This document shows, in pieces, positions 47,551-64,000 of a stretch of 64,000 bases of DNA (its first letter is position 1; each line of letters starts with the position of its first letter). This DNA comes from an uncultured delta proteobacterium (GTDB lineage: Bacteria; Desulfobacterota; RBG-13-43-22), in the NCBI GenBank assembly GCA_963790475.1, contig CAWBOS010000015.1, forward strand, positions 320,001-384,000. The letters run 5' to 3'. Made by a program: the position numbers and the translations under genes. The notes under the pieces are model-generated. The model was given only the letters and a program-made list of their open reading frames with translations, was not told where the DNA came from and did no database searches.

Positions 47551-47778
47551 GGGCTACACCTTTCCTACGGTTGATGTTCATCTTTTTGATAATTTATACA
47601 ATAATCCGGTAAGCATATCAAGAAAACGATTAGGTCAATAGGTGTGGACCGAAGACCCCTGAATCTTCCCCGAGAAATTGTTGTTGCCTGGAAGATCAGA
47701 CCCTGCTTATAATATTTTCGAAGGGGCTCTCCCTGAGTTGCTTCCCTTTTCCTAATAACGACAGAAATGGAGAAATAA

Positions 47779-48063: not shown

Positions 48064-48287
48064 AGATTATTGACCCCAAAATTATAAAAAAATCCCCCTG
48101 AGAATAATTTTTCTTGCGATGGGGGCTTGATTTGTGGTTTAATTCTTCTTAAAGTATACAAAACTAGTCCACCAACCATCTCTCTTCCGGTGGAGATTTT
48201 TAACCCTGACAGAAATTTTTCTGGACAGCGGCAAGATATAAAAAAAGATAAAAATTGACTGACATTTTTTCTTAGGAAGGAGGGACT

Positions 48288-48734
48288 ATGATCCAGACTA
48301 AAGTTCTTCTTGTGGATGACGAACGGGAGAATATTCGCTATTTGACCACCATCCTTGAGGAAAACGGTTTTAAAAACATTTTCAGTGCAGCCAATGGCGA
48401 GGAGGGTCTTAAACAGGTGGAGGCCGTAAACCCCGGTCTGATCGTGCTTGATATCCGCATGCCCAGGAAAAGCGGTATCCAGATGTTTAATGATTTGAAA
48501 ACGGTTTCGAGGTTTAAGGATATCCCGATTATCGTTTTGACCGGAGAAGGGGAATTTTTAAAACGCCTGCATGCCTTGCGCACCTTCCACGAAGGGGATG
48601 AAGTCAAGTTGGATAAACCGGCTGAAGAAGCCTTGGCCCGATTAATTGATGATCGTCCGCAAGCCTTTCTGGAAAAACCTATAGAACCGGAAGCCTTTAT
48701 GGAAACGGTTCGGAAGGTTCTATCCAAGGGATGA
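48288..48734 (+). CDS. Single-domain response regulator
   Basis: LLVDD, VLDIRMP, LTG and EKP motifs, with an insertion before the KP. Confidence 0.9.
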   Translation: MIQTKVLLVDDERENIRYLTTILEENGFKNIFSAANGEEGLKQVEAVNPGLIVLDIRMPRKSGIQMFNDLKTVSRFKDIPIIVLTGEGEFLKRLHALRTFHEGDEVKLDKPAEEALARLIDDRPQAFLEKPIEPEAFMETVRKVLSKG

Positions 48735-48865
48735 AAAGGATACCCGGGACCTCATTCGGCCGTTGGGCAGACCGACAGGTCAAGGAGTCAGGTGATCAAT
48801 TTGGAGTTCTTTCTCTTAGCCTTAAAATCTACTTTTCAAAGTAGATTGAGAGGAGTTCCGCTTTA

Positions 48866-50452
48866 ATGCCGCCAGAGGATTATAATCAGGGGAAAAAATC
48901 TGCCGCGAATCATTCGGCCGTCGAAAGTTCAGCAGGTCCGGTGATCCGCCGCGGCACTCAAGCCCGGCTCCCACTTAAAATGGGGATTATCGGAGGAGGG
49001 AAGGCTTGTGACGACCTTCTGACACTTCTTGTCGAGGAGCATGTAAGCCCCCTGAATATTGAAATTTTAGGGGTGTCCGACCCTAATCCCGAGGCCCCGG
49101 GTTTGATTCATGCCCGCCGCTTGTCAATTTATACCACGCCGGATTTTCAACAATTATACAATCTCCCCGGTCTCAACTTTCTAATCGAACTGACAGGTTC
49201 CAACGCGGTTCGGAAACAGGTCATTGAAACCAAACCTTTTGAAATCAGCTTTATGGACCACCGCAGCTCCCGCCTGTTATGGGACCTCCTGCAAATCAAT
49301 ACCGAGAAATACCAATTACAGTTGGGGGAGATCGCCCTTCAGGAAGAAGTGCGACGGCACAAAGAGTATTTGGAAAACATAGTTATCAACTCCTCAGATA
49401 TGATTATCACCACCGATTTGGAGCGGAATATCGTCACTTTTAATCCCGCCGGACAACGGATGTTGGGTTATTCTCCGGTGGAGATGCGGGGCAAAAAGGT
49501 GGAAGACATTTGGGTCAATCCGGAAGAAAGGGAACGGCTGCTTTCCTTGGTTTTCTCCCAGGGAGCAGTTGACAATTTTCCCACCACCTTGATGGCCAAA
49601 AACGGGCAAGGGGTTGACATCAGCCTTTCCTTATCCCTTTTAAGGGACAATACCGGCCAGGTTATTGGGACCGTTGGCATCAGTAAGGACGTGACCGAGG
49701 AAAACCGTCTTCGGCGTCAATTAATTGAAAATGAACGATTGGCGGCCATTGGGCAGACCGTAGCCGAATTGGCCCATTGTATTAAGAATATTTTAAACGG
49801 CCTGAAGGGAGGGTCTTACCTGATCAATGTTGGGCTCAAGCGAAAGGAAAACGGGTTGGTTGCTGAAGGTTGGCAAACCGTACAAAAAGGGATTTCCCGG
49901 ATCAGCCGTCTGAGCTTGGATATGCTCAATTATTCTCACGACCGGAAACCGGATTTACAACCGGTCGACCCCTTTCTATTGGCCAAAGAAGCCACAGATA
50001 TGGTTTTTCAAGCTGCTCTTCTGGAGGGGATTGAGGTCAACCTCAACGGTCAGGAAGGACCACTCGTGCTTTTGGATTCAACGCAAATAGGAAGAGCCCT
50101 GATGAATTTAATCGATAATGCCATCGATGCCTGCCGGGAGAAGGACTATTTAGACAATGAAAAACCTCGGGTAGAAGTTACGGTGGACCGGGGGGATAAT
50201 GAGGTCCAGTTTATTGTCCGGGACAATGGAACGGGGATGGATGCCGAAGTACAAGGCCAGTTATTTAAACGGTTTTACAGCACCAAGGATTCCGGAGGAA
50301 CCGGACTTGGGCTCCCGGTAACCCAAAAAATCGTCAACGAACATCGAGGCATCTTGAAATGGGTATCAGGTCCCGGAAAGGGATCGGCCTTTTCTCTCGT
50401 TTTACCTATTTACTTACCGGACTCTTCAAATGGAAAAACCTCGAAACAGTAA
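48866..50452 (+). CDS. PAS sensor histidine kinase with N-terminal Rossmann-like domain
   Basis: GIIGGG start, PAS domain, LAHCIKN H-box, N/G1/F/G2 boxes. Confidence 0.92.
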   Translation: MPPEDYNQGKKSAANHSAVESSAGPVIRRGTQARLPLKMGIIGGGKACDDLLTLLVEEHVSPLNIEILGVSDPNPEAPGLIHARRLSIYTTPDFQQLYNLPGLNFLIELTGSNAVRKQVIETKPFEISFMDHRSSRLLWDLLQINTEKYQLQLGEIALQEEVRRHKEYLENIVINSSDMIITTDLERNIVTFNPAGQRMLGYSPVEMRGKKVEDIWVNPEERERLLSLVFSQGAVDNFPTTLMAKNGQGVDISLSLSLLRDNTGQVIGTVGISKDVTEENRLRRQLIENERLAAIGQTVAELAHCIKNILNGLKGGSYLINVGLKRKENGLVAEGWQTVQKGISRISRLSLDMLNYSHDRKPDLQPVDPFLLAKEATDMVFQAALLEGIEVNLNGQEGPLVLLDSTQIGRALMNLIDNAIDACREKDYLDNEKPRVEVTVDRGDNEVQFIVRDNGTGMDAEVQGQLFKRFYSTKDSGGTGLGLPVTQKIVNEHRGILKWVSGPGKGSAFSLVLPIYLPDSSNGKTSKQ

Positions 50453-51137
50453 TAACTGTCGAATGGCTGAAGGACCAAACATTGAAAAGAAGGATTTTTC
50501 GCTTCCCAGAGGAGAAAGGTCCTTCCCCCGGAATCTGTCGCTTTAGCCCAATTGGAGAGTTGAAGACTTACCTTTTGCCCTACCTCTTCGTTCCTAAAAA
50601 GCAGATTCCTTTTCTGCCAGAGAGAACCTCTAATAACTCCTTGTCTCTCCAGTTCCATTACTTCTATGACTTGAACGGTGGTCAATGGGAAGGCTGTGGA
50701 CATAGTATAATCATTAATCGACAGGATGTTATCCTAATCCCTGGCGTTATGGACGGTCTTCGGGATTCCCTTTCTGATAGAAGGCAGAAAAAGATCCGAC
50801 GAGTTCGATTTATAGAGGATTCTCCCTAAATATTGTCCATCCCTATATAAAAAAATCCCCTGGATGTTGTTCCAATTTACTTTTTTTGGGTCCGGACGTC
50901 AATCTGATTTTGTTAGAGGCCCCCTTCCGCACCTCTCCTACCCTGGGCAATCGACCGGGAAGGTCTGGTTCTACTTTAGGCCATTACTACAGATAAGTCC
51001 TTTCAGGCGACTCCAGTGTCATCTTAAAGCTTCTCTTTTGGGGTTTTCTTTCTGAATCATGGTCATTTCTTTAATATAACCTTATGATATTAATTAATTT
51101 AAAGAACAGCAGCTCCTTTTCAAATTCTTTAATATTT

Positions 51138-51153
51138 TGGCATACTATTTGAA
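51138..51153 (+). promoter_or_regulatory. Putative sigma54 promoter
   Basis: TGGCATACTATTTGAA; GG-N10-GA, a variant at -12. Confidence 0.5.
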
Positions 51154-51228
51154 GAACATTAATTGTTGCACCTGATCGACCTGATTAAAGCTTGGGTGTA
51201 TCTCACAGCATCCCGGATTAAATAACCG

Positions 51229-52290
51229 ATGGCTTTCCCATTAAAAACGGACAAACTTAGATCCCTTTTCTGGAGAATATTCCTTTTTGTGGCCGGGTCG
51301 GCCCCCCTTTTTTTTCTGATAGGGTATACCAAGCCGCCTCAGGAAAATCTTTCTTGGGTTTTACTTTTTGGAGTGGTCTATATTCTCTTTTTATTCTTCC
51401 TTTTTTTCTATTTGCAAACGGTTTTTTCCAGGGAACACATCAATAAGATGGTTGAAATAAGCTCCATGGCCGAAGAAATCCAAGCCGAAAAACTGGCTTC
51501 CCTGGGGCTGGTGTCGGCCGGGATTGCTCATGAGATTAATAATCCCTTGGGAATTATATTAGGCTATTGTGGGTTGCTCTTAGAAAAAATTGAACCGGAA
51601 ACGCAGCTCTATAACGACCTGAAAACCATTGAACGCCAGGGCCTGAACTGCAAACTTGTGGTTGACAATTTATTGAATTTTACCAGGTTGGGCGGAAACC
51701 CCGATGACAAGGTCAACCTTAAGGAAATCATCGAAAAAATAATGACCGTTGTTGGACCGGGGTTGAAGGCCCAGGGTATAATTTGTGAGTGTTCTTTTTC
51801 TTCCCAATTGCCTCCGGCCCGTGGAAATGTTCAAAAATGGCAGCAGGTGATTTTAAACCTAGTCAATAATGCTAAAACGGCCATGCCTGGTGGGGGGAGT
51901 CTTAAGATCTGGGCCTCGAGTCAACACCACCCCAAAACCATAGAAATTGGCATTCAAGATTCAGGAAATGGTATCCCCCCCAAAAACCTAAAGAGGATAT
52001 TCGAACCCTTTTTCACCACGAAAAACGAAGGGCGTGGAATTGGTTTGGGACTTTCCGTCACTTATGGTATTATTATTAATTATGGAGGGACCATAAGCTG
52101 CGAGAGTGAAACCAAGGATGCACCCGGCCGCCCCAAAGGTACAACCTTCATCATTTCCGTTCCCACGGCATCAGTTAAGAGCTTCGGCGTTGCGGGGAGT
52201 CAATTTGCGGCCTCATCAGTGCCCCATATCCATTATAATTTAATAAAAAATAGGTTCGACAAGGAAGCAATATGGCCGAAAGAATATTGA
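51229..52290 (+). CDS. Membrane histidine kinase with minimal sensor region
   Basis: Two TM helices, AHEINNPL, DSGNG, FEPFFTTK and GIGLGL motifs. Confidence 0.92.
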   Translation: MAFPLKTDKLRSLFWRIFLFVAGSAPLFFLIGYTKPPQENLSWVLLFGVVYILFLFFLFFYLQTVFSREHINKMVEISSMAEEIQAEKLASLGLVSAGIAHEINNPLGIILGYCGLLLEKIEPETQLYNDLKTIERQGLNCKLVVDNLLNFTRLGGNPDDKVNLKEIIEKIMTVVGPGLKAQGIICECSFSSQLPPARGNVQKWQQVILNLVNNAKTAMPGGGSLKIWASSQHHPKTIEIGIQDSGNGIPPKNLKRIFEPFFTTKNEGRGIGLGLSVTYGIIINYGGTISCESETKDAPGRPKGTTFIISVPTASVKSFGVAGSQFAASSVPHIHYNLIKNRFDKEAIWPKEY

Positions 52291-53672
52291 TCGTGGACGA
52301 TGAAATCGACATGCTTGAATTACTCAAGCGGATTATTGAAGATAAAACTAATTATCAGGTGGTTATCACCCCTGACCCCCTGGCGGTCCCCCAGATTCTT
52401 GAAGAAAATATTTTTGACCTGGTAATTACCGATTTGCGGATGCCTGCCCAAAGCGGTCTGGAGCTGCTCGAAATCATCCGGGAAAAAGATGATCAAATCC
52501 CGATCGTCATCCTGACCGCCTATGGAACCATTGAATCGGCCGTGGAGGCCATGCAAAAAGGGGCTTTCAGTTTTATCACCAAGCCTTTTAAAAAAGAAGA
52601 AATCCTTTTAACCATTGATAAGGCATTTAACTTTCAACGCTTGACCAAAGAGAATATCAGCCTGAGAAATGAGCTGGAAGAAAAACTGAAATTTCCCTTT
52701 CTGATCGGCAAAAGCCCTCTCATGGAGAAGGTCTACCAGCGCATTATACAGGTGGCCAGGACTTCAGCGACGATTCTGATCACCGGCGAATCAGGGACCG
52801 GGAAAGAATTGGCGGCCAAAACCCTCCACTTTCACAGCCAGAGAAAAGAAAGAAATTTTGTGGCCGTCAATTGTTCGGCCATCCCGGAGACCCTCATTGA
52901 AAGCGAATTATTCGGTCATTTAAAAGGTTCCTTTACCGGAGCCATCCGGGATAAAAAAGGACTGGTGGACGAAGCGGATCGCGGGACCTTGTTCCTTGAC
53001 GAAATCGGGGACTTGAACCTGATCATGCAGACCAAATTGCTGCGTCTGCTTCAGGAAGGGGAATATAAACCGGTCGGAAGTTCCAAAACTTTAATCGCCG
53101 ATCTTAGGTTTGTCGCCGCCACCAACCAGGATTTAATGGGAAAAATCCATAAGAAAGAATTTCGGGAGGATTTGTTTTATCGATTGAATGTGATTCAGAT
53201 TCTGTTACCCCCCTTAAGAGATCGTAAAGAGGATATCCCGATCCTGGCCCGGCATTTCCTCGAAAAATATAGCCGACTCAATCAAAAAGAAATCAAGGGA
53301 ATTGAATCTGAAGCCCTGGAGGTGCTGATGACCCGGGACTGGCCCGGAAATATCAGAGAATTAGAGAATGTCCTCGAACGAGGGGTTATTTTAACCAGGA
53401 CCGATCTCCTCCAGGTATCCGACTTGTTTCCGGAGAATCAGCCGGCATCTTTTCCATTCAGGATTCAGGAAAATATCTTCATGTCCCCTTTTAAAGAGGC
53501 CAAGGAAAATATTATCAATAATTTTCATATCGAATATATCCGCAGGGTCCTGGCTAAACACGGCGGGAACGTTTCCCTGGCAGCTAAGGAATGTGGTCTT
53601 AAACGGCCTTATCTCCACCGCCTGATGCGGGACAACGATATCAAATCTAAAACCTATCGTCATTCCGGTTAG
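52272..53672 (+). CDS. NtrC-family sigma54 response regulator
   Basis: Receiver domain, GESGTGKE, GSFTGA, LFLDEIG and C-terminal HTH. Confidence 0.96.
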   Translation: MAERILIVDDEIDMLELLKRIIEDKTNYQVVITPDPLAVPQILEENIFDLVITDLRMPAQSGLELLEIIREKDDQIPIVILTAYGTIESAVEAMQKGAFSFITKPFKKEEILLTIDKAFNFQRLTKENISLRNELEEKLKFPFLIGKSPLMEKVYQRIIQVARTSATILITGESGTGKELAAKTLHFHSQRKERNFVAVNCSAIPETLIESELFGHLKGSFTGAIRDKKGLVDEADRGTLFLDEIGDLNLIMQTKLLRLLQEGEYKPVGSSKTLIADLRFVAATNQDLMGKIHKKEFREDLFYRLNVIQILLPPLRDRKEDIPILARHFLEKYSRLNQKEIKGIESEALEVLMTRDWPGNIRELENVLERGVILTRTDLLQVSDLFPENQPASFPFRIQENIFMSPFKEAKENIINNFHIEYIRRVLAKHGGNVSLAAKECGLKRPYLHRLMRDNDIKSKTYRHSG

Positions 53673-53815
53673 AATTTTCTTAACAATTGACTCTGAGGTC
53701 TTTATGTATAAAATAGGTGACATCCTGTATCTTGAAAAGCATCTAAACCTGATCCAGGTAAAGAATTTAGGCGAAAAAACTTTTTAAAAATACCTAATTG
53801 CAACCATTGAACCAT

Positions 53816-53831
53816 TGGCACATTATTTGAA
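53816..53831 (+). promoter_or_regulatory. Putative sigma54 promoter of the TauE operon
   Basis: TGGCACATTATTTGAA; GG-N10-GA. Confidence 0.6.
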
Positions 53832-54058
53832 TTCATAAAACTGTTTACGATTGAGTCTCTTGTCTTACTCACAAATTCGGTCTCCCCGGAATATTCCGGT
53901 TAAGTCCGGGGCAGCTGACGCCGAGGTTCGGCAAAAAGGAACGTTTTTCAAAGCGCTCTCCAGGAAAGAATAAGGAGGCGGGATGAGGACAAAAGACTTT
54001 AACAAGGTGCTCTCTTATTAAATGTATGCCATTTTCAATAAAGAAGGAGGCTTAAGTT

Positions 54059-55315
54059 ATGAGCGTAGGCAGACAAGTCTTTGAATTTTTAAAGGCCGGG
54101 GCCATAGCCCATGCCCAATGGGACATCGAGGTCTCCTTGAGCATTTTGAGGGACAGGAAAAAGCTTCTGATTCTCCTATGTATGTTGCTGCCCATTTTTG
54201 CGGTGGCTATTTGTGAAGGGGCTAATATTTTGGGAGGCAAGGACGCTTATGCCCCGTCTCACTATACTACCACCATCTTTCTGGCTTCCGTTGCCATCGG
54301 GCTTTGCGCCGGTTTAATCACCGGGTGTATCGGGGCTGGAGGGGGGTTTATCGTCACCCCGGCCTTGATGGCCGCGGGGGTGAAGGGGATCCTGGCCGTG
54401 GGGACCGATCTCTTCCATATTTTCGCCAAGGCGATTATGGGCACCGCGGTCCACAAGAAATTGGGCAACGTTTCCGTTAAGCTGGCCATTGCCTTTCTGG
54501 CCGGTTCCGGTGTGGGAACGTTTATCGGAGGCTACATCAACAAGGCCCTCTATAATATCGATCCTCTGCTCAGCGACACTTTTATCAGTGTCATTTATGC
54601 CGTCCTCCTGGGATTCCTGGGTTTTTATGCCCTGTTCGATTTTATCAAATCATCCAGAGAGGAATCGTCTGCTTCCTCCGGAGGAGGCCATGATGCCCAT
54701 GGGGGACCCGCCGGGGTAACCGGTGTGGCCGTTAAAGTGCAGAATTTGAACCTTCCTCCCATGATCGGTTTTGATGAAGACCTGGGTGGACGAAAAATCT
54801 CCGGGGTGATCGTGGCCCTGGGGGGGGTTGTGGTTGGTTTGCTGGCGGCTCTGATGGGGGTGGGAGGCGGATTCGTTACCTTTCCCATGTTTGTCTATAT
54901 CTTCGGTGTTTCTTCCATGACTACCGTGGGTACTGACATCTTACAGATCATCTTTACCGCAGGATTGGCAGCTATAGCCCAGTATGCCATTTACGGTTAT
55001 GTTTTCTATTCGCTGGCCATGGGCATGTTGATCGGCTCCTTAGTTGGAATCCAAGTGGGCGCCTTAACCACTAAGGTGGTCAAGGGGATTCATATCCGGG
55101 GATTTTATGCAGTTTCCATCCTGGCCGGCTTTATCAATCGGGTAGCGACCCTGCCTAAGAAGTTTACTGAAATGGAAGTGATCAATATTCCCAAATCAAT
55201 AAGCGGGCCTATCGATTTTGCCGGGGCGATCATCTTCTGGGTCGTGGTGGGTTTTTTCGGCCTCTGGGTCTTTAGCAAGTTCTTTGGAAATTTAAAAGTA
55301 TTGAGGGAGGGATAA
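54059..55315 (+). CDS. TauE/SafE family membrane transporter
   Basis: GAGGGF..P, AVGTDL and GVGGGF internal repeat. Confidence 0.9.
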   Translation: MSVGRQVFEFLKAGAIAHAQWDIEVSLSILRDRKKLLILLCMLLPIFAVAICEGANILGGKDAYAPSHYTTTIFLASVAIGLCAGLITGCIGAGGGFIVTPALMAAGVKGILAVGTDLFHIFAKAIMGTAVHKKLGNVSVKLAIAFLAGSGVGTFIGGYINKALYNIDPLLSDTFISVIYAVLLGFLGFYALFDFIKSSREESSASSGGGHDAHGGPAGVTGVAVKVQNLNLPPMIGFDEDLGGRKISGVIVALGGVVVGLLAALMGVGGGFVTFPMFVYIFGVSSMTTVGTDILQIIFTAGLAAIAQYAIYGYVFYSLAMGMLIGSLVGIQVGALTTKVVKGIHIRGFYAVSILAGFINRVATLPKKFTEMEVINIPKSISGPIDFAGAIIFWVVVGFFGLWVFSKFFGNLKVLREG

Positions 55316-55318
55316 GCC

Positions 55319-56032
55319 ATGGTGATTCGTAATAAAGGACCTTTTATCATGGGGTTGTTTTTGGCCATTTCCTTTATTGGGGTCTGGATTCTTATTTTTT
55401 CTCCGATTTACGGGGGAGGCATGAACGGTCTCGATTTTGCCGATGACCTTTTTAATAAGTTATCCAAGGGTTCCTCCTATTTTATTCCTGATTTAAAGGA
55501 AGCCAATAAAGAATTCCAGGGAAAATCTTTTGCGGTAAGTATCACCCTGGAAAAACCCAAGGAAGCGGAGCAGATCAGCAAACTGTTTGTAGCTGCCGGG
55601 GCTAAAGTTGATGTCCAGGGCACCAATTTAAAGATTGAAGGGGACTTTGGTAAAACCATAGACCTGGTTTTAAAGGATTCCGACCTGATGTTTCATAATC
55701 AGGGAAAAGAGTTGATGACCGCCTACGGTTTTGATGAAAAAGAAGTGATGAAAGGTTGGTGGACCGCCTTATCCAAGATGGAAAAATTCTTTAAAAAGAA
55801 CTTCAAGATCGAGGAAGCCAATCATATTTCGGAAATAAGCAAAAAAGGGATCGAACCGGCCTATAATTTTTACAAGATTGAACCTCAGCGGGTGATCGAT
55901 CGGGCCGGCCTGATGACTTTTTTGCTGGTTTTTTATTTATTCTATACCATTTGGTGGGGTTATGGCATCTTTTATATTTTTGACGGCGTCGGGCTGACCA
56001 TGAAAAAGGCCAAGATCAAGAAAGAAGTTTAA
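55319..56032 (+). CDS. Membrane protein associated with the TauE gene
   Basis: N- and C-terminal TM helices; FNKLSKGSSYF and EPAYNFY motifs; tightly coupled to the upstream gene. Confidence 0.8.
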   Translation: MVIRNKGPFIMGLFLAISFIGVWILIFSPIYGGGMNGLDFADDLFNKLSKGSSYFIPDLKEANKEFQGKSFAVSITLEKPKEAEQISKLFVAAGAKVDVQGTNLKIEGDFGKTIDLVLKDSDLMFHNQGKELMTAYGFDEKEVMKGWWTALSKMEKFFKKNFKIEEANHISEISKKGIEPAYNFYKIEPQRVIDRAGLMTFLLVFYLFYTIWWGYGIFYIFDGVGLTMKKAKIKKEV

Positions 56033-56143
56033 AAAAAGTTGCGAGTTGCGAGTTGTTCTCAAGGGTGGACAACCCTGCATCTTGTTTTTCTGTAATTCTG
56101 TTTTTTATTCCGCAATCCGAAATCGGAAATCCGCAATCAAACG

Positions 56144-56587
56144 ATGGGGGTAACAATGAAAATACTGGTGGCCATAGATGGTTCGAAGGATTCCGGGAAA
56201 GGTTCTGAGTTGGCCCTGAATATAGCCAAAGCCCAGGGGGCTGAGGTAACGCTTTTGGCGGTAATCCCCGTTTATCCGGGTATTGATCTGGAGATCACGG
56301 CCCGGGCCCGAGATTCCCTGGACAACAAGTTGAGCGCTCAGGCCGAGTTGGACTTAGGCAAGGCGAAAGATTTATTCCAGTCGGAAGGCATTACCCCCAA
56401 AGCCATATTGGTCAGTTCGGGGGCAATTGCCGATGAGATCATCACCATGGCGGAACAGGATAAAATGGATCTGATTGTTATCGGCAGCCGGGGCCTAGGG
56501 GCCACCGGGCGTTTCAGTCTGGGGGGAACGGCTATGAAAATAATCAGTCAGGCCCCTTGTTCTGTGCTAGTAGCCAAGGCGGAATAA
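56144..56587 (+). CDS. Universal stress protein
   Basis: KILVAIDGS, LIVIGSRG..LGG and APCSVLV motifs. Confidence 0.92.
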   Translation: MGVTMKILVAIDGSKDSGKGSELALNIAKAQGAEVTLLAVIPVYPGIDLEITARARDSLDNKLSAQAELDLGKAKDLFQSEGITPKAILVSSGAIADEIITMAEQDKMDLIVIGSRGLGATGRFSLGGTAMKIISQAPCSVLVAKAE

Positions 56588-56698
56588 AGAATGACAAGGG
56601 GAGGGGGCGATACGGAGACTCGGGGAAATGGGGGAATAATATAACAAACTCCTCTCGCTTATTCTCCGCGTCACCGTATCACCGTGTCCCCGCGTCTT

Positions 56699-57814
56699 TT
56701 ATTTGGACGGATCGAATTCGTAATTCCCCCGCAGGAAAGCTTCGACGTGCCAGGAAACAATTGATTCATCATTCATGACCATGTCTCGTTGACGGGAGCA
56801 GCCCATTAATCTTCCGATCAGATCCAGATTTTTTTCCGTACAAGCACGATCCCGGTGCAGGAGCCGGGCGTTAACCCAATCCTTTTGGACGACCACTTCA
56901 AAGTCAAGTTTTTCCAAGACAGCCCCGATAAATCGGGCCCTACGGGCCCGGCGCACATCGTCGGCCGCTCCGCCTTTGAACATAAACCGGATATGATTAT
57001 TATCCCGGTTGTCAGAGATATAGGAATCCACCGAGGTGTAATGGTAGCCCAGACGGGAATTGTAATTCATATATTCTCCAGTCAGCAAGGCATAGGTCTT
57101 ATCCCAGAAATCTTCTTCCGGGCGGCTGGTACTCTGGGCCATGATCACCATCAGACCTTTTAAATTGACTCCAATCGGTCCGGACCAGGATATTCCCTGG
57201 CAATACATACCCTTGAACATGGCCAGCATGGGTTCGGAAAGGATTTCCTCCTTGCGAACCAACTTCTTTTCTGTGCCCGAAAACAGCCCCCCACCCAGGT
57301 CAATGACGTGAAGATTGATCGGCAGCCCGGTTTGAACCCTTATGGCCTTGGACCAGCTCGGATCAAAGCGATCCAAAAGGTCAAACATTTCTTCAACCGC
57401 CAGTTCATGGGTATAGTCCAGAAGGTCCTCCAGACCATGCAATTCTTTGACCGGAAAAGGTCCTGGATTGGGCCTGATTTGATTCTGAAACATAGAAAGA
57501 TAAAGGCTGTCTGATCCTCTCCAGGGGTTTTGACAAAGCCCATCTTGAATGTCCTGAAATTTTTTCACCTGGTCCAGGGAGCATTGATTGGAGATCATGT
57601 TCAATGACCCGATAATCGTCCCAATCGTTTGGGAAAGGTCCTGGGACATTTCAGGATCTTGCCCCCGGATTATTTCCAGGGCCTTGGCCCTGGCCTCCAT
57701 CAGGGCTCGAAAATGGTTGTAAATGGCCTGAAAATTTTCAAGCAGGGAATTTTTTGATTTGGAATCCGGATGGATCAGTTTTTTTAACCAGGTTTTCATG
57801 CCAATGGCCAGCAA
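56699..57814 (-). CDS. Paralog of the PEP-synthase-like protein with only N- and C-terminal domains
   Basis: VIDLGGG, SRLGYH, FKGGAAD and RQRDM shared with 59184-61787; no ATP-grasp or His domain. Confidence 0.8.
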   Translation of the reverse strand: MLAIGMKTWLKKLIHPDSKSKNSLLENFQAIYNHFRALMEARAKALEIIRGQDPEMSQDLSQTIGTIIGSLNMISNQCSLDQVKKFQDIQDGLCQNPWRGSDSLYLSMFQNQIRPNPGPFPVKELHGLEDLLDYTHELAVEEMFDLLDRFDPSWSKAIRVQTGLPINLHVIDLGGGLFSGTEKKLVRKEEILSEPMLAMFKGMYCQGISWSGPIGVNLKGLMVIMAQSTSRPEEDFWDKTYALLTGEYMNYNSRLGYHYTSVDSYISDNRDNNHIRFMFKGGAADDVRRARRARFIGAVLEKLDFEVVVQKDWVNARLLHRDRACTEKNLDLIGRLMGCSRQRDMVMNDESIVSWHVEAFLRGNYEFDPSK

Positions 57815-57889
57815 CTTTTTTTCAAGCTTGATGAATATCCTTTTTTACTTTATTATCCTTTCATCTTCAAGATAAAAAGAGGAGTTTTC

Positions 57890-58075
57890 ATGGGAGTCCT
57901 GGAATACCTGATTAAAATGGCCGTTGATGCCGCCCCGCAACGTCCCGGATTTCAAACCCGGACCCTTTATATTCTCATTAATCTGGCCCTTCCCATTTTG
58001 CTGGGGATTGTTCTGGCCTGGATAACCCGGGTTATGGAAAAAGGCTTGCTCCGCCTGCTGGGCGAGAAACGCTGA
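57890..58075 (+). CDS. Small membrane protein
   Basis: 61 aa, SD GAGGAG, one TM helix, coupled to the next gene. Confidence 0.65.
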   Translation: MGVLEYLIKMAVDAAPQRPGFQTRTLYILINLALPILLGIVLAWITRVMEKGLLRLLGEKR

Positions 58076-58077
58076 TC

Positions 58078-59034
58078 ATGGACACCCCCTTTTCTTTTTT
58101 CCCGATAGCCTCTTACTGGGCTCAGATCCAGGGCCTTCAAATTCATCCGAATCTGACAGGCCTGATCGTTCTTGGTTTTCTTGTCGGAGGGATAACCGGC
58201 TTTTTCGGCGTTGGGGGCAGATTGTTAACCTCGCCTTTGCTAAATGCCCTGTTTAATATTCCCTATAATGTAGCCGTAGGCAGCGACCTCTGTCAGATGC
58301 TGGGCACCTCGACCTTGAATATCCTCCGGTTTAAAAGAATGAGCCGTATCGATTATACGCTGGGAGGCTGGATGCTGGCCGGAACGATCATCGGTGTGGA
58401 AGGGGGAACAAGACTTCTGGAAATCCTGAAACAGGCCGGGAAGTTCAGCCTCAGGGGAACATCCATCGCTTATCTGCCTCTGGTTATGAGTTTGGTTTAC
58501 AGTGCCCTGCTGCTCTGGATTGGAATGATCATCTATCGGGAAGCCAGGGCGGCTGAGAAGGAAGAAGCGGCTGAGGGACTGATTGCCCCCCTTCAACCGG
58601 CCATGACCGCCAAACTTCAACATATGCATTTGGCTCCGATGATATCGCTTCCGGTATCCGGGATAGAGGCCATTTCTCTCTGGGTGATCCTCGGCGTCGG
58701 TATGACCACCGGCTTGCTGGTCGGCTTTTTAGGGGCCGGGGGCGGATTTATCCGCATGCCGGCCTTGATTTACGTCATCGGATGTCCCATGGTGGTAGCT
58801 ATCGGAACGGACCTCTTGGAAAGTATTTTTTCTCTGGGCTATGGGACCATAACCCACTCCTTAAAAGGCAATATAGATCTGATCCTGGTGGTCATTCTTC
58901 TAATCACCGGCAGCCTGGGAAATCAGATAGGCGCGGTTTTAGCTAAAAGGCTCACTAATCCCAACCTGCGGCAGATTTTCGCCTTTATCGCCTTCGCGGT
59001 TGTAATTTTGCTGGTAGTCAAACTGATTATATAA
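58078..59034 (+). CDS. Second TauE/SafE family transporter
   Basis: GFFGVGG, AVGSDL, GAGGGF and AIGTDL motifs. Confidence 0.88.
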   Translation: MDTPFSFFPIASYWAQIQGLQIHPNLTGLIVLGFLVGGITGFFGVGGRLLTSPLLNALFNIPYNVAVGSDLCQMLGTSTLNILRFKRMSRIDYTLGGWMLAGTIIGVEGGTRLLEILKQAGKFSLRGTSIAYLPLVMSLVYSALLLWIGMIIYREARAAEKEEAAEGLIAPLQPAMTAKLQHMHLAPMISLPVSGIEAISLWVILGVGMTTGLLVGFLGAGGGFIRMPALIYVIGCPMVVAIGTDLLESIFSLGYGTITHSLKGNIDLILVVILLITGSLGNQIGAVLAKRLTNPNLRQIFAFIAFAVVILLVVKLII

Positions 59035-59183
59035 TTATAATTAATTCAGATGTCGAAACCAAAGAATTTTTTTTTTGTTTCGAGTTGCGGGTTAGTTAAT
59101 CAAATGTTCTCTTATGAATCATGCCTTGAAACCCGCAATCCGTAATGAGGTCTTAGTCTACAGGGCATGGTCAGGACTATCGC

Positions 59184-61787
59184 ATGTTGGATTTAAAAGG
59201 ATTTTTGAAAAGACGACAGGAAGGAAAAATCCGGAAGGCCGAGAAGGCCCGGGACCAAATTCGTCTGTCCTTTACCCAGCGGTATTTGAATTTTAAAACC
59301 CTCCTCAGCCTTAATGACAAAGTTTTAGAGATCATCAATGAAATGGAACAGGCCCTGGAAAGTGATCAGGGCTTTGGAATGGCCTTTGTCCGAGCCCATT
59401 GCACCGCCCTTTCGGTTAACCTGTTTAAGATAATTCAAAGCCTCAATGCCATTACTGATAGTAGAAACAAGATCCTCTTCCCGGTCTTCGATGGGATCTG
59501 GGCCAAAATCGATCAGGAATTGAAAAGGAAAAAAACCTCGACCCAGGGAGAGTGGATCCTTCCCCTGAAAGCAGTGAACAAAACCATGGCCGACCAAACA
59601 GGGAATAAAATGGCTAATCTTGGGGAGGTAAAGAATCAGGTGGGCCTGCCTGTTCCCGAGGGATTTGTAATTACAGCCTCGGCTTATGATTTTTTTCTGG
59701 AGAAAAACCTTTTGCAGGATGAGATCAACCGGCGGATTCAATTTCTGGAACCTTCCGATATTGCCCAGCTCCATGAAACCAGTTCGGAAATCCAGAAATT
59801 AATCACCAATGCCGTCCTCCCTCCCGAATTGGAAGAAGCCATTATGTCCGCCTATCAGGACTTAATAAAAAATACTGACCAGGGGACGCGTGTTTCCATG
59901 CGCAGCAGCGCCTTGGGAGAAGACGCCCAGGAGGCCTCTTTTGCCGGTCAGTATCGTTCCCTCCTCAATGTAAGCCCGGACTACCTGATCCTGTCTTACA
60001 AAGAAATTCTGGCCAGCAAATATTCGGTTCCCGCTATAGCCTACCGCCTCAACAAAGGATTCCTGGATGAAGACATCGTTATGTGTGTCGGGTGTATGGC
60101 TATGATCCAGGCCGAGGCTGCGGGGGTAATGTATTCCGCCGACCCGGGGGACAGACAGAAACAAGGGATCATCATCAACGCCGTCTTAGGACTGGGCAAA
60201 TCCGTGGTCGATGGAAGCCTGATACCCGACCTGTTTATCGTTGACAGAAAAAATACCCATCACCTGACCAAAAAAGAAATACAGAAGAAAACAAAGAAAT
60301 TTATCTGTGATCCGGAAGAGGGGGTCTGCCTGGAAACTCTGGTTGAAACCGGAGAACAGCACCCGGCCATCACCGATGAACAGGCCGGGAGTTTGGCCGA
60401 AATGGCCCTCCGTCTGGAATCCCATTTCAACTGCCCCCAGGATATCGAATGGGCTATTCAAACCGACGGGTCTTTTCAGATTCTCCAGGCCCGACCCCTT
60501 TTGATCCTTGGGAAAGAAACCCCTCCGGCAGAAGCGGTTTCGACGCCCCCGATAGAACAGCCGCTGATCCTGGAAGGGGGGATAACGGCCAGTCCCGGTG
60601 CGGCCAGCGGCCCGGCCTTTTTAATTGAAACAACCGTTGACATGCTGCAGTTTCCTTCCGGTGCGGTGCTGGTGGCCAGAAACCCCTTGCCCCAATGGGC
60701 AGCCCTTTTAACCCATTCCGCAGCCGTGGTAACCGATCAGGGGGCACTGACCGGTCACCTGGCGGCCGTTGCCCGGGAATTCAAGGTTCCAGCCCTGATG
60801 GGTACACAGAAGGCCTTTCAAACGATTCAGCGGGGAGATTTGATTACTGTCGATGCCACGGGTCATAAGATCTATGCCGGAAGAGTGGATGCCCTTCTCG
60901 CCGGATCAATAAAAAAATCAAGCCCCATGAAAGACAGCCCGGTTTATCGTTCCTTGGAAAAAATCCTTAAGTATATCGCTCCTCTGAACCTGACCGATCC
61001 CGAAGGCGGAACTTTCACCCCGGAGGCTTGTCAAACCCTTCATGACATCATACGATATGCCCATGAAATGTCCCTGAGAGCGCTTTTTGATGACCGGAAA
61101 GAAATATCTATCTCTGAAAAAGTGGCCAAAAAGCTGGTTTCCGAGATCCCCATGGAATGGTGGGTGATTGATTTGGACGGAGGAGTCCGGGAAGGAATTG
61201 ACGGCCCTACCCTTCAACTGGAAGATATCCACTCGGTTCCCTTATTGGCTTTGTGGAAAGGGCTGGCGGCTGTTCCCTGGAAAGGCCCGCCACCGGTGGA
61301 CGCTCGCGGCTTTCTTTCCATCCTGGCCGAATCCACTATGGACCCCTCTCTGGAATACGGACAAGATTCAGAAATGTCAGCCAAAAACTTTGCCATCATT
61401 TCTGAGAATTTTTGTCATTTAAGTACCCGGCTGGGATTTCATTTCTCGACGGTGGAAGCCTATCTGGGGGATCAAGCCGCAGAAAACTATGTCTGGTTCT
61501 ATTTTAAAGGAGGGGCAGCCGATCGGGTTCGCAAGGAACAGAGGAGCCGTCTAATCCAGATTATCCTGGAAGGATTCCATTTTTGGGTGCAAACGAAAGG
61601 AGATTTGATTTCGGCACGGTTGGAACGGCAAGAAAAAGAAATTTTAGCAGACCGATTAAAGGTCCTGGGCTATTTGATCCTCCACACCCGGCAGTTGGAT
61701 ATGGTCCTTTCCAATCCCGGAAAAGTTAATCAGTACATTGAAAAAATGCTCGCAGAAATAAGTACGTTTGTAAATATTCCAGCTTAA
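59184..61787 (+). CDS. PEP-synthase-like protein (ATP-grasp + phospho-His domain + uncharacterised C-terminal domain)
   Basis: GNKMANLGE, RSSA..ED, SFAGQY, DIEWA, LQARP and LTGHLAAVARE motifs; no pyruvate-binding barrel. Confidence 0.88.
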   Translation: MLDLKGFLKRRQEGKIRKAEKARDQIRLSFTQRYLNFKTLLSLNDKVLEIINEMEQALESDQGFGMAFVRAHCTALSVNLFKIIQSLNAITDSRNKILFPVFDGIWAKIDQELKRKKTSTQGEWILPLKAVNKTMADQTGNKMANLGEVKNQVGLPVPEGFVITASAYDFFLEKNLLQDEINRRIQFLEPSDIAQLHETSSEIQKLITNAVLPPELEEAIMSAYQDLIKNTDQGTRVSMRSSALGEDAQEASFAGQYRSLLNVSPDYLILSYKEILASKYSVPAIAYRLNKGFLDEDIVMCVGCMAMIQAEAAGVMYSADPGDRQKQGIIINAVLGLGKSVVDGSLIPDLFIVDRKNTHHLTKKEIQKKTKKFICDPEEGVCLETLVETGEQHPAITDEQAGSLAEMALRLESHFNCPQDIEWAIQTDGSFQILQARPLLILGKETPPAEAVSTPPIEQPLILEGGITASPGAASGPAFLIETTVDMLQFPSGAVLVARNPLPQWAALLTHSAAVVTDQGALTGHLAAVAREFKVPALMGTQKAFQTIQRGDLITVDATGHKIYAGRVDALLAGSIKKSSPMKDSPVYRSLEKILKYIAPLNLTDPEGGTFTPEACQTLHDIIRYAHEMSLRALFDDRKEISISEKVAKKLVSEIPMEWWVIDLDGGVREGIDGPTLQLEDIHSVPLLALWKGLAAVPWKGPPPVDARGFLSILAESTMDPSLEYGQDSEMSAKNFAIISENFCHLSTRLGFHFSTVEAYLGDQAAENYVWFYFKGGAADRVRKEQRSRLIQIILEGFHFWVQTKGDLISARLERQEKEILADRLKVLGYLILHTRQLDMVLSNPGKVNQYIEKMLAEISTFVNIPA

Positions 61788-61882
61788 GATAAGAGCTCAC
61801 AGTTCATTGCTCATTGCGCAAAGGAAAAGCCTTTGCCATGAGCTATCAGCTACGAGCTGTCAGCTAAATAGGGAGGTGTTCA

Positions 61883-62269
61883 ATGGAAGGAATCCGGTTA
61901 TTACTCGCCGACGACGAGGAAGATTTTCGAACGACCTTGACCAGCCGTCTGAGAAAAAGAAGGTTGGAAGTCGTGGATGTGGAAGACGGTTATAAGGCGG
62001 TCGAAGTTGTGAAATCAAAGCCGATCGATGTCGCGGTGGTCGATGTCAAGATGCCGGGAATGGATGGACTGGAGACTTTGAAGCAGATCAAGCAGATCAA
62101 TCCATTGATCGAAGTGATCTTGCTGACCGGTCACGCCTCAGTGGAATCGGGGATTGAAGGGATGCGTCTGGGGGCCTTTGATTACCTCATGAAACCCTGT
62201 GACATCAATGAACTGATGCTGAAAATCGAAGATGCCTATCAAAGGAAACTGGTGCAGGAAAAGGCCTAA
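61883..62269 (+). CDS. Single-domain response regulator
   Basis: LADDE, VVDVKMPG, LTGH and MKP motifs. Confidence 0.93.
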   Translation: MEGIRLLLADDEEDFRTTLTSRLRKRRLEVVDVEDGYKAVEVVKSKPIDVAVVDVKMPGMDGLETLKQIKQINPLIEVILLTGHASVESGIEGMRLGAFDYLMKPCDINELMLKIEDAYQRKLVQEKA

Positions 62270-62314
62270 GGACCAGAATTAGGATAAAAAATTGCTGGCC
62301 GATGTCCAGGCTTC

Positions 62315-62545
62315 TTAATCGTTTTGATAGGAAGAGTCAGCCACATGAACCAGACCACGCCCGAAATTCTCCCCCCGGAACAGACCGCAAAAAGCCCGGG
62401 GGGCGTTTGCTAAACCTTCAACAATGTGCTCGCGAACAACCAATTGTTTGTTCTTGATCCAATCCGCCATTGTCCGTCGCGCTTCATTAAAAAATTCCGC
62501 ATGATCCAGCACCACAAATCCGCGCATATCAAGTCGTTTAGCAGG
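62315..62545 (-). pseudogene. C-terminal fragment of an NADP-dependent oxidoreductase (CurA/prostaglandin reductase-like)
   Basis: KRLDMRGF...GLANAPRAF.GLF.G.NFG motif; N-terminal three-quarters absent. Confidence 0.75.
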
Positions 62546-62595
62546 GCATTCACCTATCTTAGGTTAGATTTTTTCCGGGTTTGCCTGCTACCAGA

Positions 62596-64000
62596 CTATT
62601 GAGTCGCCAGAGCGACCTTCATCTGCTGTTCCCCGGATATGACCTGATCCGCCCTGGCCGGCGCCAGGTCGATCTGAACCCAGTTTACCCGTCCGCTAAA
62701 ATGGTTGCCTGACACCCGAAAATCTGGACAGATGGGTCCCCCGGTTTTGTTGCCGACCATCAATCGGGCATCCCCCGCAAAAGCTACCGGAACGGTCCGT
62801 TCAATCCTTCCCTCGGCCACCTTCTTGGCATCGACGAAAAGCGTAACCATCCCCCCTTTGCCTATTCCACCACCGTCATAGGCGAACTCCATCCGGATCA
62901 GATGGCTGCCGGGAGTCAGCAGCCCCGGGTCCTGCACCGTGTAGAGCTCCATGCCGGCGCAATTATAGACATAGGTGAGCTTGCCGTCCTTCATGTAAAG
63001 CCCCCATCCGCCAAAATTGGCGCCTTCGGCAACGATTACTCCACGGACGCCGGCAGCAGGAACTTCAACTTCCGCCGTGACCGAATGGGTCCGGTTCTTA
63101 ACACTGACCACCGAGTGAACGTTCAAGGCGCTGCCCGGCAACAGGCGCTGAGAACGACCTTGAATCAGTCTGGGTCTTCCGGATATCCTGGGGCTGAATC
63201 GCTCTCCGCGCCGATCGTCTAAGGGCAGCACATTGTGGCGGGCGGCCTCTATCAACCACAACCTCTGCAGTTGGTGAAGTTTTTCCGGGTATTTCTTGGC
63301 CAGGTCCTCGGCCTGGGTCCAATCTTTCGTCGTATCGTAGAGTTCCCAGTTATCGTCATCGAAAGCCGGTGGTTTGGTTTGAACCCAGGGCAGACCATGC
63401 CTGGTCACCGCGGTCCAGCCTTTGTAATAGATCCCCCGGTTACCGAACATCTCGAAATATTGAACTTCATGTCGGTCCGGGGCTTCGCCCTCGTCGAAGG
63501 AATAGAGCATACTGACCCCTTCCAGGGGCTTCTGCTGAACGCCATCAACGGAGATCGGTTCAGGGATTCCGGCCGCCTCTAAAATGGTAGGGAATATATC
63601 GATGACATGATGGAATTGAGCGCGTATCTGCCCTTTGGCCTGAATCCCTTTGGGCCAATGCACCACCGTTCCATTGCGGGTGCCGCCCCAATGGGAAGCG
63701 ATCTGTTTGGTCCACTGATAGGGCGTGTCCATGGCATGGGCCCAGCCTACAGCGTAGTGATTGTAGGAGTCGGGCCCCCCTATATCCTCCAGACGCTTGA
63801 TCAAATACTCCGGGGTCTCTATGTCCTGCATATTATTGAAGTGGAGCATCTCAGAAAAAGTGCCGTTGAGACCGCCCTCTGCCGAAGCGCCGTTATCGCC
63901 GATGACGTAGTAGACCAGGGTGTTCTCTAAAGCCCCGAGCGCGGTGATCGCCTCCACCAGCCTGCCGATATGGAAGTCGGTGTATTCGAAAAAATCCCGC
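62596..64000 (-). CDS. Arylsulfatase, 5' end outside the window
   Basis: GDNGASAEG, GWAHAMDTP, GGTRNG, HHVID and QYFEM motifs. Confidence 0.92.
   Translation of the reverse strand, partial: RDFFEYTDFHIGRLVEAITALGALENTLVYYVIGDNGASAEGGLNGTFSEMLHFNNMQDIETPEYLIKRLEDIGGPDSYNHYAVGWAHAMDTPYQWTKQIASHWGGTRNGTVVHWPKGIQAKGQIRAQFHHVIDIFPTILEAAGIPEPISVDGVQQKPLEGVSMLYSFDEGEAPDRHEVQYFEMFGNRGIYYKGWTAVTRHGLPWVQTKPPAFDDDNWELYDTTKDWTQAEDLAKKYPEKLHQLQRLWLIEAARHNVLPLDDRRGERFSPRISGRPRLIQGRSQRLLPGSALNVHSVVSVKNRTHSVTAEVEVPAAGVRGVIVAEGANFGGWGLYMKDGKLTYVYNCAGMELYTVQDPGLLTPGSHLIRMEFAYDGGGIGKGGMVTLFVDAKKVAEGRIERTVPVAFAGDARLMVGNKTGGPICPDFRVSGNHFSGRVNWVQIDLAPARADQVISGEQQMKVALATQ

Follow-up and report, generated by a model that had tools for sequence, protein, structure and literature searches.

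Swiveling-histidine dikinases combine, in one chain or complex, an ATP-grasp domain, a mobile (swivel) histidine domain and a separate acceptor domain. In the phosphoenolpyruvate (PEP) synthase PpsA and in pyruvate phosphate dikinase (PPDK), the acceptor domain is a PEP/pyruvate TIM barrel. The available text of PMC12167813 describes rifampin phosphotransferase, HpeHI, CreHI and phenylphosphate synthase as enzymes with a changed acceptor domain and small-molecule substrates, and that of PMC13553574 describes glucan water dikinase as having a changed acceptor domain and a glucan substrate. Here we analyze a 64,000-nucleotide stretch of DNA from an uncultured delta proteobacterium (assembly GCA_963790475.1, contig CAWBOS010000015.1, positions 320,001 to 384,000, forward strand), hereafter the window, which encodes an 867-residue protein, DIK, beside two TSUP/TauE-family transporters (TauEA and TauEB), a two-transmembrane-segment partner of TauEA (orf237), a universal stress protein (USP), two-component signaling proteins and a single-domain receiver (REC128). 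DIK has the three-part layout of the swiveling-histidine dikinases, ends in a domain of a new kind and is a member of a large family, found almost exclusively in the Desulfobacterota, whose genes lie near transporter and receiver genes in many species. It is not a PEP synthase, and it may phosphorylate a small molecule handled by the transporter.

The resemblance of DIK to PpsA and PPDK lies in the kinase core. As the first-pass annotation of this DNA had proposed, the protein retains an ATP-grasp domain together with a swivel histidine, in the same order as in PpsA and PPDK, and these enzymes supply the best sequence and fold matches to residues ~122-580. In an alignment of DIK with 81 long open reading frames (ORFs) from related loci (n = 82), His525 is invariant (82/82) and the ATP-grasp residues K142, R240, E246, D247, D420, E422 and R437 are each kept in 81-82 of the 82 sequences. 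The histidine closes an LTGH motif (residues 522-525). A threonine two positions before the histidine is a regulatory phosphorylation site in PEP synthase, PPDK and Enzyme I, according to the available text of PMC12167813, and the first-pass annotation had pointed to this likeness. The threonine is present in DIK; because only 14 of the 82 proteins have Thr523, 61 having alanine there, it is a detail of the clade and not a mark of the family.

Outside the core the likeness ends. The NCBIfam PEP synthase equivalogs align to residues 122-580 only and score far under their cut-offs (363 bits against 598 for NF005057; 344 bits against 739.75 for TIGR01418), and PEP synthases in the Protein Data Bank (PDB) align to residues 124-573 only. 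The NCBIfam models for rifampin phosphotransferase, PigC/RedH and other enzymes are likewise limited to the core and far under their cut-offs, the rifampin phosphotransferase model NF041857 giving 228.6 bits against 999 and NF000283 giving 154.7 bits against 1700. A full-length AlphaFold2 (AF2) model of DIK (pLDDT 82, pTM 0.67) retrieved core matches only when searched with Foldseek, namely the PEP synthase 2ols (464 columns) and the ATP-grasp domains of rifampin phosphotransferase and HpeI, and the ATP-grasp fold matches 5hv3, 5hv6 and 9goj. No HisKA/DHp or Hpt Pfam domain was found in DIK. None of 390 proteins examined is a dikinase fused to a receiver or to another domain of the cluster, and the extra length of a 1,078-residue protein among them (P0128) is a low-complexity tail only.

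The swivel histidine domain belongs to the same Pfam family as that of Enzyme I of the phosphotransferase system (PTS) and of EI-Ntr (PtsP), which give weak matches to DIK residues 485-569. The swivel histidine of Enzyme I starts a protein phosphotransfer chain tied to transport and regulation. [quoted passage not shown]

Beyond residue 560 no Pfam domain was detected even at E<=5, the PEP-utilizers_C barrel included. An AF2 model of the C-terminal domain (C-domain; residues 575-867), built on 98 sequences, has a mean pLDDT of 89.4 and a pTM of 0.81. This model opens with two helices, a three-stranded element and a further pair of helices; an antiparallel meander of four strands comes next, then a long helix and a hairpin, and three helices close the domain. 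The domain is thus modeled as an alpha/beta fold and not a TIM barrel, in agreement with the first-pass proposal of a dikinase-type enzyme in which the pyruvate barrel has been replaced. Foldseek searches of the C-domain model against 350,542 PDB chains gave no match at E<=1e-3, and a profile of 40 C-domains searched against PDB sequences gave a best E value of 0.26. DesK chains appeared among the fold matches only at E 0.04-0.1 and TM-scores of 0.09-0.14. We rejected the InvB chaperone as a fold relative; it was the top Foldseek match, but at E 4.6e-3 and a TM-score of 0.20, which is not significant. Look-alikes in the ESM Atlas, eukaryotic Dymeclin/Hid1 clusters with scores of 0.90-0.91, were set aside as noise, recognition being below the reliable range. 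The C-domain is therefore a domain of a new kind, with no relative in Pfam, NCBIfam or the PDB. The reuse of the kinase core for a substrate other than pyruvate is what rifampin phosphotransferase, HpeHI, CreHI and the phenylphosphate synthase PpsAB would share with DIK; in the enzymes like rifampin phosphotransferase (RPH) the substrate-binding domain precedes a C-terminal swivel domain, whereas in DIK the new domain follows the swivel domain (PMC12167813, available text). The RPH-like structures were within the PDB set that yielded no match to the C-domain.

A set of polar residues in the C-domain is close to invariant. C616, H620, D621, R624, H627, E628, R749, H753, G776, G777, R783 and R787 are kept in 81-82 of the 82 aligned sequences, and D807, R836, Q837 and D839 in 76-79. 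In the model, one helix or the stretch ahead of it carries C616, H620, D621, R624, H627 and E628, a strand carries R749, G751 and H753, and G776-G777 separate another element, also a strand, from the N-terminal end of the helix bearing R783 and R787. A Gly-Gly loop at the N-terminus of a helix, flanked by arginines, would be shaped as sites for anions or phosphate usually are. Judged by its conservation, the invariant Cys/His/Asp/Arg set looks more like an active site for a small molecule than like a surface for docking. The motifs FKGGAAD (residues 774-780) and RQLDM (residues 836-840), noted previously in this domain, stand as described; a third, given as SRLGxH, reads TRLGFH in DIK (residues 748-753), SRLG(F/Y)H being the family consensus and the form found in the paralogue orf371.

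A further difference from PpsA and PPDK is an extra three-helix region at the N-terminus, for which no Pfam domain was found at E<=5 (residues 1-120). This region recurs, together with the C-domain, in orf371, a minus-strand gene that had escaped the first-pass annotation. Its product contains the C-domain for a second time (BLASTP against DIK, 32% identity over 259 residues, E 1e-38); alignment of the orf371 family with the C-domain by hhalign gives 100% probability and E 1e-53, and the first ~96 residues of orf371 are homologous to the N-terminal helices of DIK (hhalign 96.7%, E 4.6e-10). As both its N-terminus and its C-domain are homologous, orf371 corresponds to DIK minus the ATP-grasp and swivel domains, that is, to a stand-alone N+C module. 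Homologs of orf371 form a real family: 195 clusters were found at E<=1e-3, some of the proteins are encoded on contigs longer than 100 kb, and, among the 120 homologs listed, 66 cover at least 92% of the sequence, are 331-377 residues long and contain no Pfam domain. In one metagenome-assembled genome (MAG) the homologs of orf237 and orf371 are two locus tags apart (HY787_25600 and HY787_25610), in the order of the window, and in locus L012 an N+C module without kinase core follows orf237 on the same strand. Among 22 short representatives with the C-domain, 16 lack the swivel domain. Several of these, such as the N+C proteins P0206 and P0219, keep the whole pocket; orf371 itself is changed at four otherwise near-invariant pocket residues (C616L, H620E, R624D and H834C), and it is most likely a regulatory or binding paralogue.

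The DIK family is large. A search with the C-domain, which drew on 4,670 candidates, found 1,255 clusters (90% identity, E<=1e-3); at 50% identity the family has 1,199 representatives, 550 of them with E<=1e-30. Among the 120 clusters listed, nearly all proteins are ~865 residues long, and the named entries there read "pyruvate, water dikinase" or "PEP/pyruvate-binding domain-containing protein". In species-representative genomes, to which all linkage counts below refer, at least 673 stretches matched two family patterns and at least 662 were confirmed; the best 80 of these gave 79 loci (L001 and following). By label, almost all are of Desulfobacterota type, to which the family is almost confined; three of the 79 carry other phylum labels (Thermoleophilia, Holophagae and Phycisphaerales MAGs), and two are from isolates, Desulfoferrobacter suflitae and Desulfobulbus elongatus. 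We found no description of the family or its cluster in the literature searched, subscription journals and supplements being outside its scope. A candidate case, identified by annotation, may nevertheless be present in Dissulfuribacter thermophilus. In the available text of PMC13490349, a "PEP synthase" (DITHS69_1988, log2 change 3.40), a [quoted passage not shown] (DITHS69_1989, 1.79) and a TauE protein (DITHS69_1990, 1.56) are reported as more abundant in thiosulfate disproportionation than on H2 plus sulfite, and the authors read the first as gluconeogenesis. The locus tags given there for the same UniProt entry conflict (DITHS69_1988 in Table 2, DITHS69_1161 in the text); DITHS69_1988 would adjoin the TauE pair. 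In the literature searched, such a trio is mentioned by this paper only, and the family goes unrecognized there.

In the 79 loci, ORFs were called and then searched with the proteins of the window. We counted 80 family genes of at least 780 codons in 71 loci, leaving out a distant 938-residue protein (L035_16531, E 5e-7); the other eight loci have truncated copies only, or none found by ORF calling (L005). A TauEA-type gene lies on the same strand within 4.5 kb upstream of the dikinase gene in 44 of the 66 cases with at least 3 kb of upstream sequence, and within 5 kb upstream on either strand in 46 of 66. Its position is sharply defined: 39 matches fall within the -2 kb bin (67 loci), and the bins from +1 to +5 kb are empty. 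Likewise, orf237 lies within 400 bp upstream of the dikinase gene in 33 of 70 cases, and a TauEA-orf237 fusion is found directly upstream in two more. In L051 (7422-9410, 662 residues) and L054 (7675-9690, 671 residues) the two genes form one reading frame, which argues that TauEA and orf237 work as one unit. The gene order is retained between dikinases that are just 43-50% identical, and nine of the 71 loci contain two family genes, adjacent or close to one another. The co-occurrence with transporter and receiver genes foreseen in the first-pass annotation is thus strongly conserved across species.

Both TauE proteins of the window match the TSUP family (TauE/SafE, 4-toluene sulfonate uptake permease; PF01925) over its full length, with 131.9 and 126.9 bits against a gathering score of 32.6. 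TauEA differs from other family members in its length of ~420 residues, with N- and C-terminal extensions, and in its dedicated two-transmembrane partner, to which it is sometimes fused. We know of no characterized TSUP protein with a kinase partner. TSUP proteins are numerous in sulfate reducers and are described as functionally uncharacterized (PMC5840216, available text). The transmembrane segments of TauEA are conserved; its central loop (200-225) is variable, and a conserved histidine or other target sought in this loop was not found. The partner orf237 has at least 1,541 homologous clusters, all unnamed. By the positive-inside rule, with Arg/Lys at both ends, its central domain of ~165 residues might face outward, which might befit a domain that assists an uptake system by binding. 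As a separate observation, TauEB-type genes elsewhere are followed by genes for a DUF4881 protein and a ~265-residue protein without family (L015:6328-6954, L074:3590-4228); TauEB of the window is without both, and the dikinase gene is directly next. No homolog of orf61, the small gene that abuts TauEB, was found in the loci at E<=1e-5.

Stand-alone receivers are the other constant neighbors. Among the 51 dikinase genes with at least 3 kb on both flanks, 48 have one within 5 kb upstream or 3 kb downstream, 24 have one within 400 bp, and 39 have a histidine kinase nearby. By distance, the -3 kb bin (63 loci) contains 52 receiver matches, the -1 bin (68 loci) 20 and the +1 bin (63 loci) 12; each bin beyond 6 kb holds 1-4 (41-48 loci). 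The commonest operon encodes a dCache kinase, one to three receivers, TauEA, orf237 and the dikinase, and in many cases another receiver, or a kinase with a receiver, comes next. Of seven cluster kinases scanned, six have a dCache_1 domain and one a GAF domain. REC128 and its relatives resemble CheY-like and Spo0F-type receivers in having no output domain and all phospho-acceptor residues, several of them often standing behind one kinase in an operon. They differ in their constant partners, a dikinase and a transporter; no chemotaxis proteins, Hpt protein or Spo0B-like transferase turned up in the clusters scanned. In 46 cluster receivers that are 51-70% identical to REC128, D10, D11, D54, T82 and K104 are invariant, and 171 of 176 stand-alone receiver ORFs in the loci match REC128 better than they match the other receivers of the window. 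A tree of 137 locus receivers and the two from the window separates them by position into those directly after the kinase, those in the middle, those directly before TauEA, with which those directly before the dikinase are grouped, and the REC128 type. REC128 orthologs adjoin the dikinase genes of the window's clade or follow their kinase, and REC148, the second window receiver, falls outside the cluster receiver groups.

Regulators dependent on sigma54 recur in these loci. The order kinase, sigma54 regulator, TauEA found in the window is also present in L019, L022 and L030, and the order TauEA, orf237, USP in Syntrophobacterales-type loci. Upstream of TauEA in the window is a sigma54-type promoter-like site. 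The motif TGGCA(C/T)-N5-TTG(C/A) is found within 450 nt upstream of TauEA in seven of 46 loci, against a background of 0.01 per 480 nt, and in six of the seven loci with the TauEA closest to that of the window. This recurrence upstream of closely related TauEA genes suggests that the TauEA-orf237-USP operon may be sigma54-dependent, in which case the adjacent regulator would probably drive it. A second sigma54-like site precedes the kinase gene, and the pair suggests possible autoregulation together with control of the transporter operon. Both sites end in TTGA and not in TTGC. Across the window as a whole, sigma54-like matches are no more frequent than chance would give (16, with 21.9 expected).

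A second type of sigma54 protein, a receiver-less AAA+-HTH protein of 350-357 residues, is encoded directly upstream of the dikinases that most resemble the one in the window, in L003 (2696-3769), L004 (8722-9774) and L006 (3018-4091); the assignment is by Pfam in L003 and L004, and in L006 by length and a phmmer match to the regulator of the window. Receiver-less sigma54 activators normally need a partner protein for their control. Sigma54 activators of 862-871 residues, with ~500 residues before the AAA+ domain, are also found directly upstream of dikinases of a "second copy" clade (L032:15369-17984 and L042:2390-4978, both on the minus strand). The ~500-residue region has a weak dCache_1 match in L042 and no Pfam match in L032; to our knowledge, it would be unusual for an enhancer-binding protein to bear a Cache domain and, presumably, to be bound to the membrane.

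A FastTree phylogeny of the dikinases (local supports) resolves clades with characteristic gene orders. The Desulfobulbales-type clade (support 1.0) has kinase, receiver, TauEA, orf237, dikinase and receiver. The Syntrophobacterales-type clade (0.995) has kinase, sigma54 regulator, TauEA, orf237 and USP, then receiver, dikinase and tandem USP. The Desulfobacterales-type group is large and has two or three receivers, and the second-copy clade has a support of 0.94. The dikinase of the window belongs to a clade with a support of 1.0 that also includes those of L001, L002, L003, L004 and L006, in which the dikinase gene is followed either by a dCache kinase and a REC128 ortholog or by the receiver directly (L002 and the window). 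The window is thus two modules joined: the kinase, sigma54 regulator, TauEA, orf237 and USP set of Syntrophobacterales type, and an orf61, TauEB, DIK and REC128 set. Between them, orf371 occupies the slot that holds the receiver and the dikinase in Syntrophobacterales-type loci. Some Syntrophobacterales-type loci also encode a ~925-residue protein downstream of the dikinase (L013:10074-12866, L017:13935-16703, L022:12718-15501), with the tandem USP after it in L013 and L022; the L013 protein is Pat-like, a CoA-ligase/ATP-grasp_5 protein fused to a GNAT acetyltransferase, and those of L017 and L022 are assigned by size and position.

Of the readings that we considered for this system, we would rank first one in which the phosphate acceptor is a transported small molecule. 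In this reading, which we hold tentatively and at a little less than an even chance, DIK is a dikinase other than a PEP synthase that phosphorylates a small anion handled by TauE/orf237, under the control of Cache kinases, receivers and sigma54 regulators. The characterized relatives with a changed acceptor domain offer a precedent, since all of them act on small molecules or glucans. Because the catalytic residues are conserved, we infer that ATP would bind in the ATP-grasp domain and His525 would take its beta-phosphoryl group, with AMP and Pi released as in PpsA. The swivel domain would carry the phosphoryl group to the C-domain, where the Cys/His/Asp/Arg pocket and the Gly-Gly loop may hold a small, probably anionic acceptor. 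The acceptor would be the solute moved by the TauE/orf237 transporter, and DIK would trap or activate the transported compound, or ready one for export. The Cache kinases would sense conditions outside the cell, and the single-domain receivers would relay the signal to the enzyme, the transporter or the receiver-less sigma54 activator; having no output domain, the receivers must act by binding. As an acceptor module without kinase core that has lost four pocket residues, orf371 would have a regulatory or binding role.

Several observations weigh against this assignment. If a nutrient were phosphorylated, a conserved downstream enzyme would be expected, and the clusters share no metabolic enzyme in that position. 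Receivers are steadier neighbors of the dikinase than the transporter is (48/51 against 46/66 on either strand), and the presence of paired family genes in nine of 71 loci is a pattern more usual for signaling proteins. Stand-alone N+C proteins with an intact pocket, such as P0206 and P0219, are hard to explain if a tethered phosphohistidine is required. In the window's own clade, TauEA-orf237 lies directly upstream on the same strand in none of the five other loci, being divergent at 2.8 kb in L001.

The strongest rival is a phosphorelay in which ATP-charged His525~P exchanges phosphoryl groups with Asp54 of the dedicated receivers, so that DIK serves as a kinase-independent donor or an Hpt-like node. 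The frequency and proximity of stand-alone receivers would follow from such a role, as would their position-specific orthologous groups, one of which is always just before TauEA or the dikinase. All receivers have the full phospho-acceptor set and no output domain, two or three commonly stand behind one kinase, and no Hpt protein was found among the cluster genes scanned. We nonetheless consider this rival unlikely. Conventional kinases are present near 39 of 51 dikinase genes, and REC128 orthologs follow a dCache kinase in L001, L003 and L006, so that the receivers already have donors. A pocket of ~16 near-invariant polar residues would be superfluous in the C-domain of a receiver donor, which needs none because receivers catalyze their own phosphorylation, and none of the characterized relatives in the available text of PMC12167813 acts in this way. 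A related proposal, which we regard as doubtful, is that DIK heads a new ATP-driven phosphotransfer chain that joins a secondary transporter to two-component signaling, with phosphoryl groups passing between His525 and receivers docked on the N+C module. If this were true, the system would resemble a PTS Enzyme I that is fed by ATP and works with a TSUP carrier. The phosphorylation of the receivers, and by way of it the activity of the transporter and sigma54-dependent transcription, would then reflect ATP status or solute flux with no need of the usual histidine kinase. A receiver as acceptor would, in either case, represent a new way of feeding two-component pathways.

We are similarly doubtful that DIK is a regulatory protein kinase or switch, in which the N+C module binds a protein or ligand and the phosphohistidine modifies the transporter, the USP or the receiver-less sigma54 activator, tying transport or transcription to ATP status. 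This would account for the N+C module being a conserved family of its own (orf371) that travels with TauEA-orf237 without the kinase core in the window and in L012, for the receiver-less sigma54 proteins directly upstream in L003, L004 and L006, and for the recurrence of USP genes in the clusters. However, TauEA has just one long loop that looks cytoplasmic, and this loop is not conserved; the available text of PMC12167813 contains no dikinase of the superfamily with a protein substrate, and the conservation of the pocket looks enzymatic.

That DIK might be a true but divergent PEP synthase, as its public annotation has it, is very improbable: the source names, the PpsA domain order and a core most similar to PEP synthases speak for it, and against it are the absence of a PEP-utilizers_C TIM barrel from the Pfam and NCBIfam results, from searches of PDB sequences and from the modeled fold, scores far under the equivalog cut-offs, and a gene context of transport and signaling rather than gluconeogenesis. 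A chance neighborhood in receiver-rich genomes, with the dikinase independent of its neighbors, deserves as little credence; Desulfobacterota are rich in two-component genes and receivers do occur in the outer flanks, but the position profiles peak sharply (receivers at -3 kb and TauEA at -2 kb, against 0-4 matches in outer bins), the order is kept between distant dikinases, and TauEA and orf237 are found fused. The remaining probability belongs to some explanation outside those listed.

The coordinates of the system in the window are collected in Table 1. ORF listing and Pfam recovered all the genes named in the first-pass annotation, each in its place. A minus-strand sulfatase gene begins beyond REC128. 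The remainder of the window consists of ordinary chromosomal DNA that includes a nusA-infB-rbfA-truB-rpsO-pnp block as well as metabolic genes, and the base composition has no break at the cluster, so that the term "island" used earlier for this region applies only to a functional grouping and not in the mobile sense. An Rfam scan of 47500-64000 detected no RNA family at E<=1 and hence no riboswitch in the 386-bp TauEA leader. Scans for sigma70 promoters and terminators gave no more matches than shuffled sequences, and PADLOC found no defense-system match for seven cluster proteins.

Table 1. Features of the DIK cluster and its flanks in the window, in order of position, with the domains of DIK listed below the gene (aa, amino acids).
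Feature	Position	Strand	Basis and remarks
Receiver REC148	48288-48734	+	Pfam; stand-alone; uncertain member of the system
PAS histidine kinase	48866-50452	+	Pfam; uncertain member of the system; relatives in some loci (L001, L028)
Second sigma54-like site, before the kinase gene	51138-51153	+	2 mismatches
Histidine kinase, 353 aa	51229-52290	+	HisKA and HATPase_c; no extracytoplasmic sensor domain
Sigma54-dependent response regulator, 466 aa, REC-AAA+-HTH	52272-53672	+	PF00158, PF00072, PF02954
Sigma54-type promoter-like site TGGCAC-N5-TTGA, 228 bp before TauEA	53816-53831	+	One consensus mismatch
TauEA, TSUP/TauE-family transporter, 418 aa	54059-55315	+	PF01925 E 4e-38
orf237, two-transmembrane partner of TauEA, 237 aa, ~165-aa central soluble domain	55319-56032	+	No Pfam
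USP, 147 aa	56144-56587	+	PF00582 E 6e-26
orf371, between USP and orf61	56699-57814	-	Stand-alone paralogue of DIK N-terminal helices and C-domain
orf61, 61 aa, one transmembrane segment (hydrophobic 23-50), abuts TauEB	57890-58075	+	ORF; reality uncertain
TauEB, TSUP/TauE-family transporter, 318 aa, 150 bp upstream of DIK	58078-59034	+	PF01925 E 1.3e-36
DIK (P0001), swiveling-histidine dikinase of a new family, 867 aa	59184-61787	+	ORF; Pfam
DIK N-terminal helical region, residues 1-120	59184-59543	+	AF2 helices 2-59, 66-90, 98-113
DIK ATP-grasp nucleotide-binding domain, residues 138-446	59595-60521	+	PF01326 E 2.3e-92
DIK swivel (mobile) phospho-histidine domain, residues 490-559	60651-60860	+	PF00391 E 8e-18
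DIK His525 codon	60756-60758	+	
DIK C-terminal domain, residues 575-867	60906-61787	+	Presumed acceptor-binding or catalytic domain
REC128, single-domain receiver, 96 bp downstream of DIK	61883-62269	+	PF00072 E 2e-29

Elsewhere in the window, an IS110-family transposase gene (41344-42456, plus strand), 12 kb from the cluster, is the sole mobile-element gene seen. An S15 X-Pro dipeptidyl-peptidase-type hydrolase (37995-39589, minus strand) is encoded in two abutting ORFs, a catalytic part (38858-39589) and a PepX_C part (37995-38861), a split that may be a frameshift or an assembly error. A Polbeta-type nucleotidyltransferase and a HepT-like protein are encoded in tandem (28810-29668, plus strand), the usual form of an MNT/HepT toxin-antitoxin pair, and successive genes (12400-16726, minus strand) whose products are a VWA-domain protein, an AAA_5 ATPase and a ChlI-like protein resemble a MoxR/VWA-type chaperone set.

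Apart from its mechanism, the DIK family bears on how the metabolism of these organisms is read from their genomes. Sulfate reducers, syntrophs, sulfur disproportionators and cable-bacterium relatives encode some 1,200 clusters of proteins that are mislabeled as PEP synthase or "PEP/pyruvate-binding", since they contain no pyruvate/PEP domain, and metabolic reconstructions and proteome interpretations that read their genes as gluconeogenesis are probably wrong. The family supplies a confidently modeled domain that has no solved relative and has a clear candidate active site. Finally, the conserved set of partners for a TSUP protein, namely a two-transmembrane protein, a dikinase and dedicated receivers, makes the function of the transporter testable.

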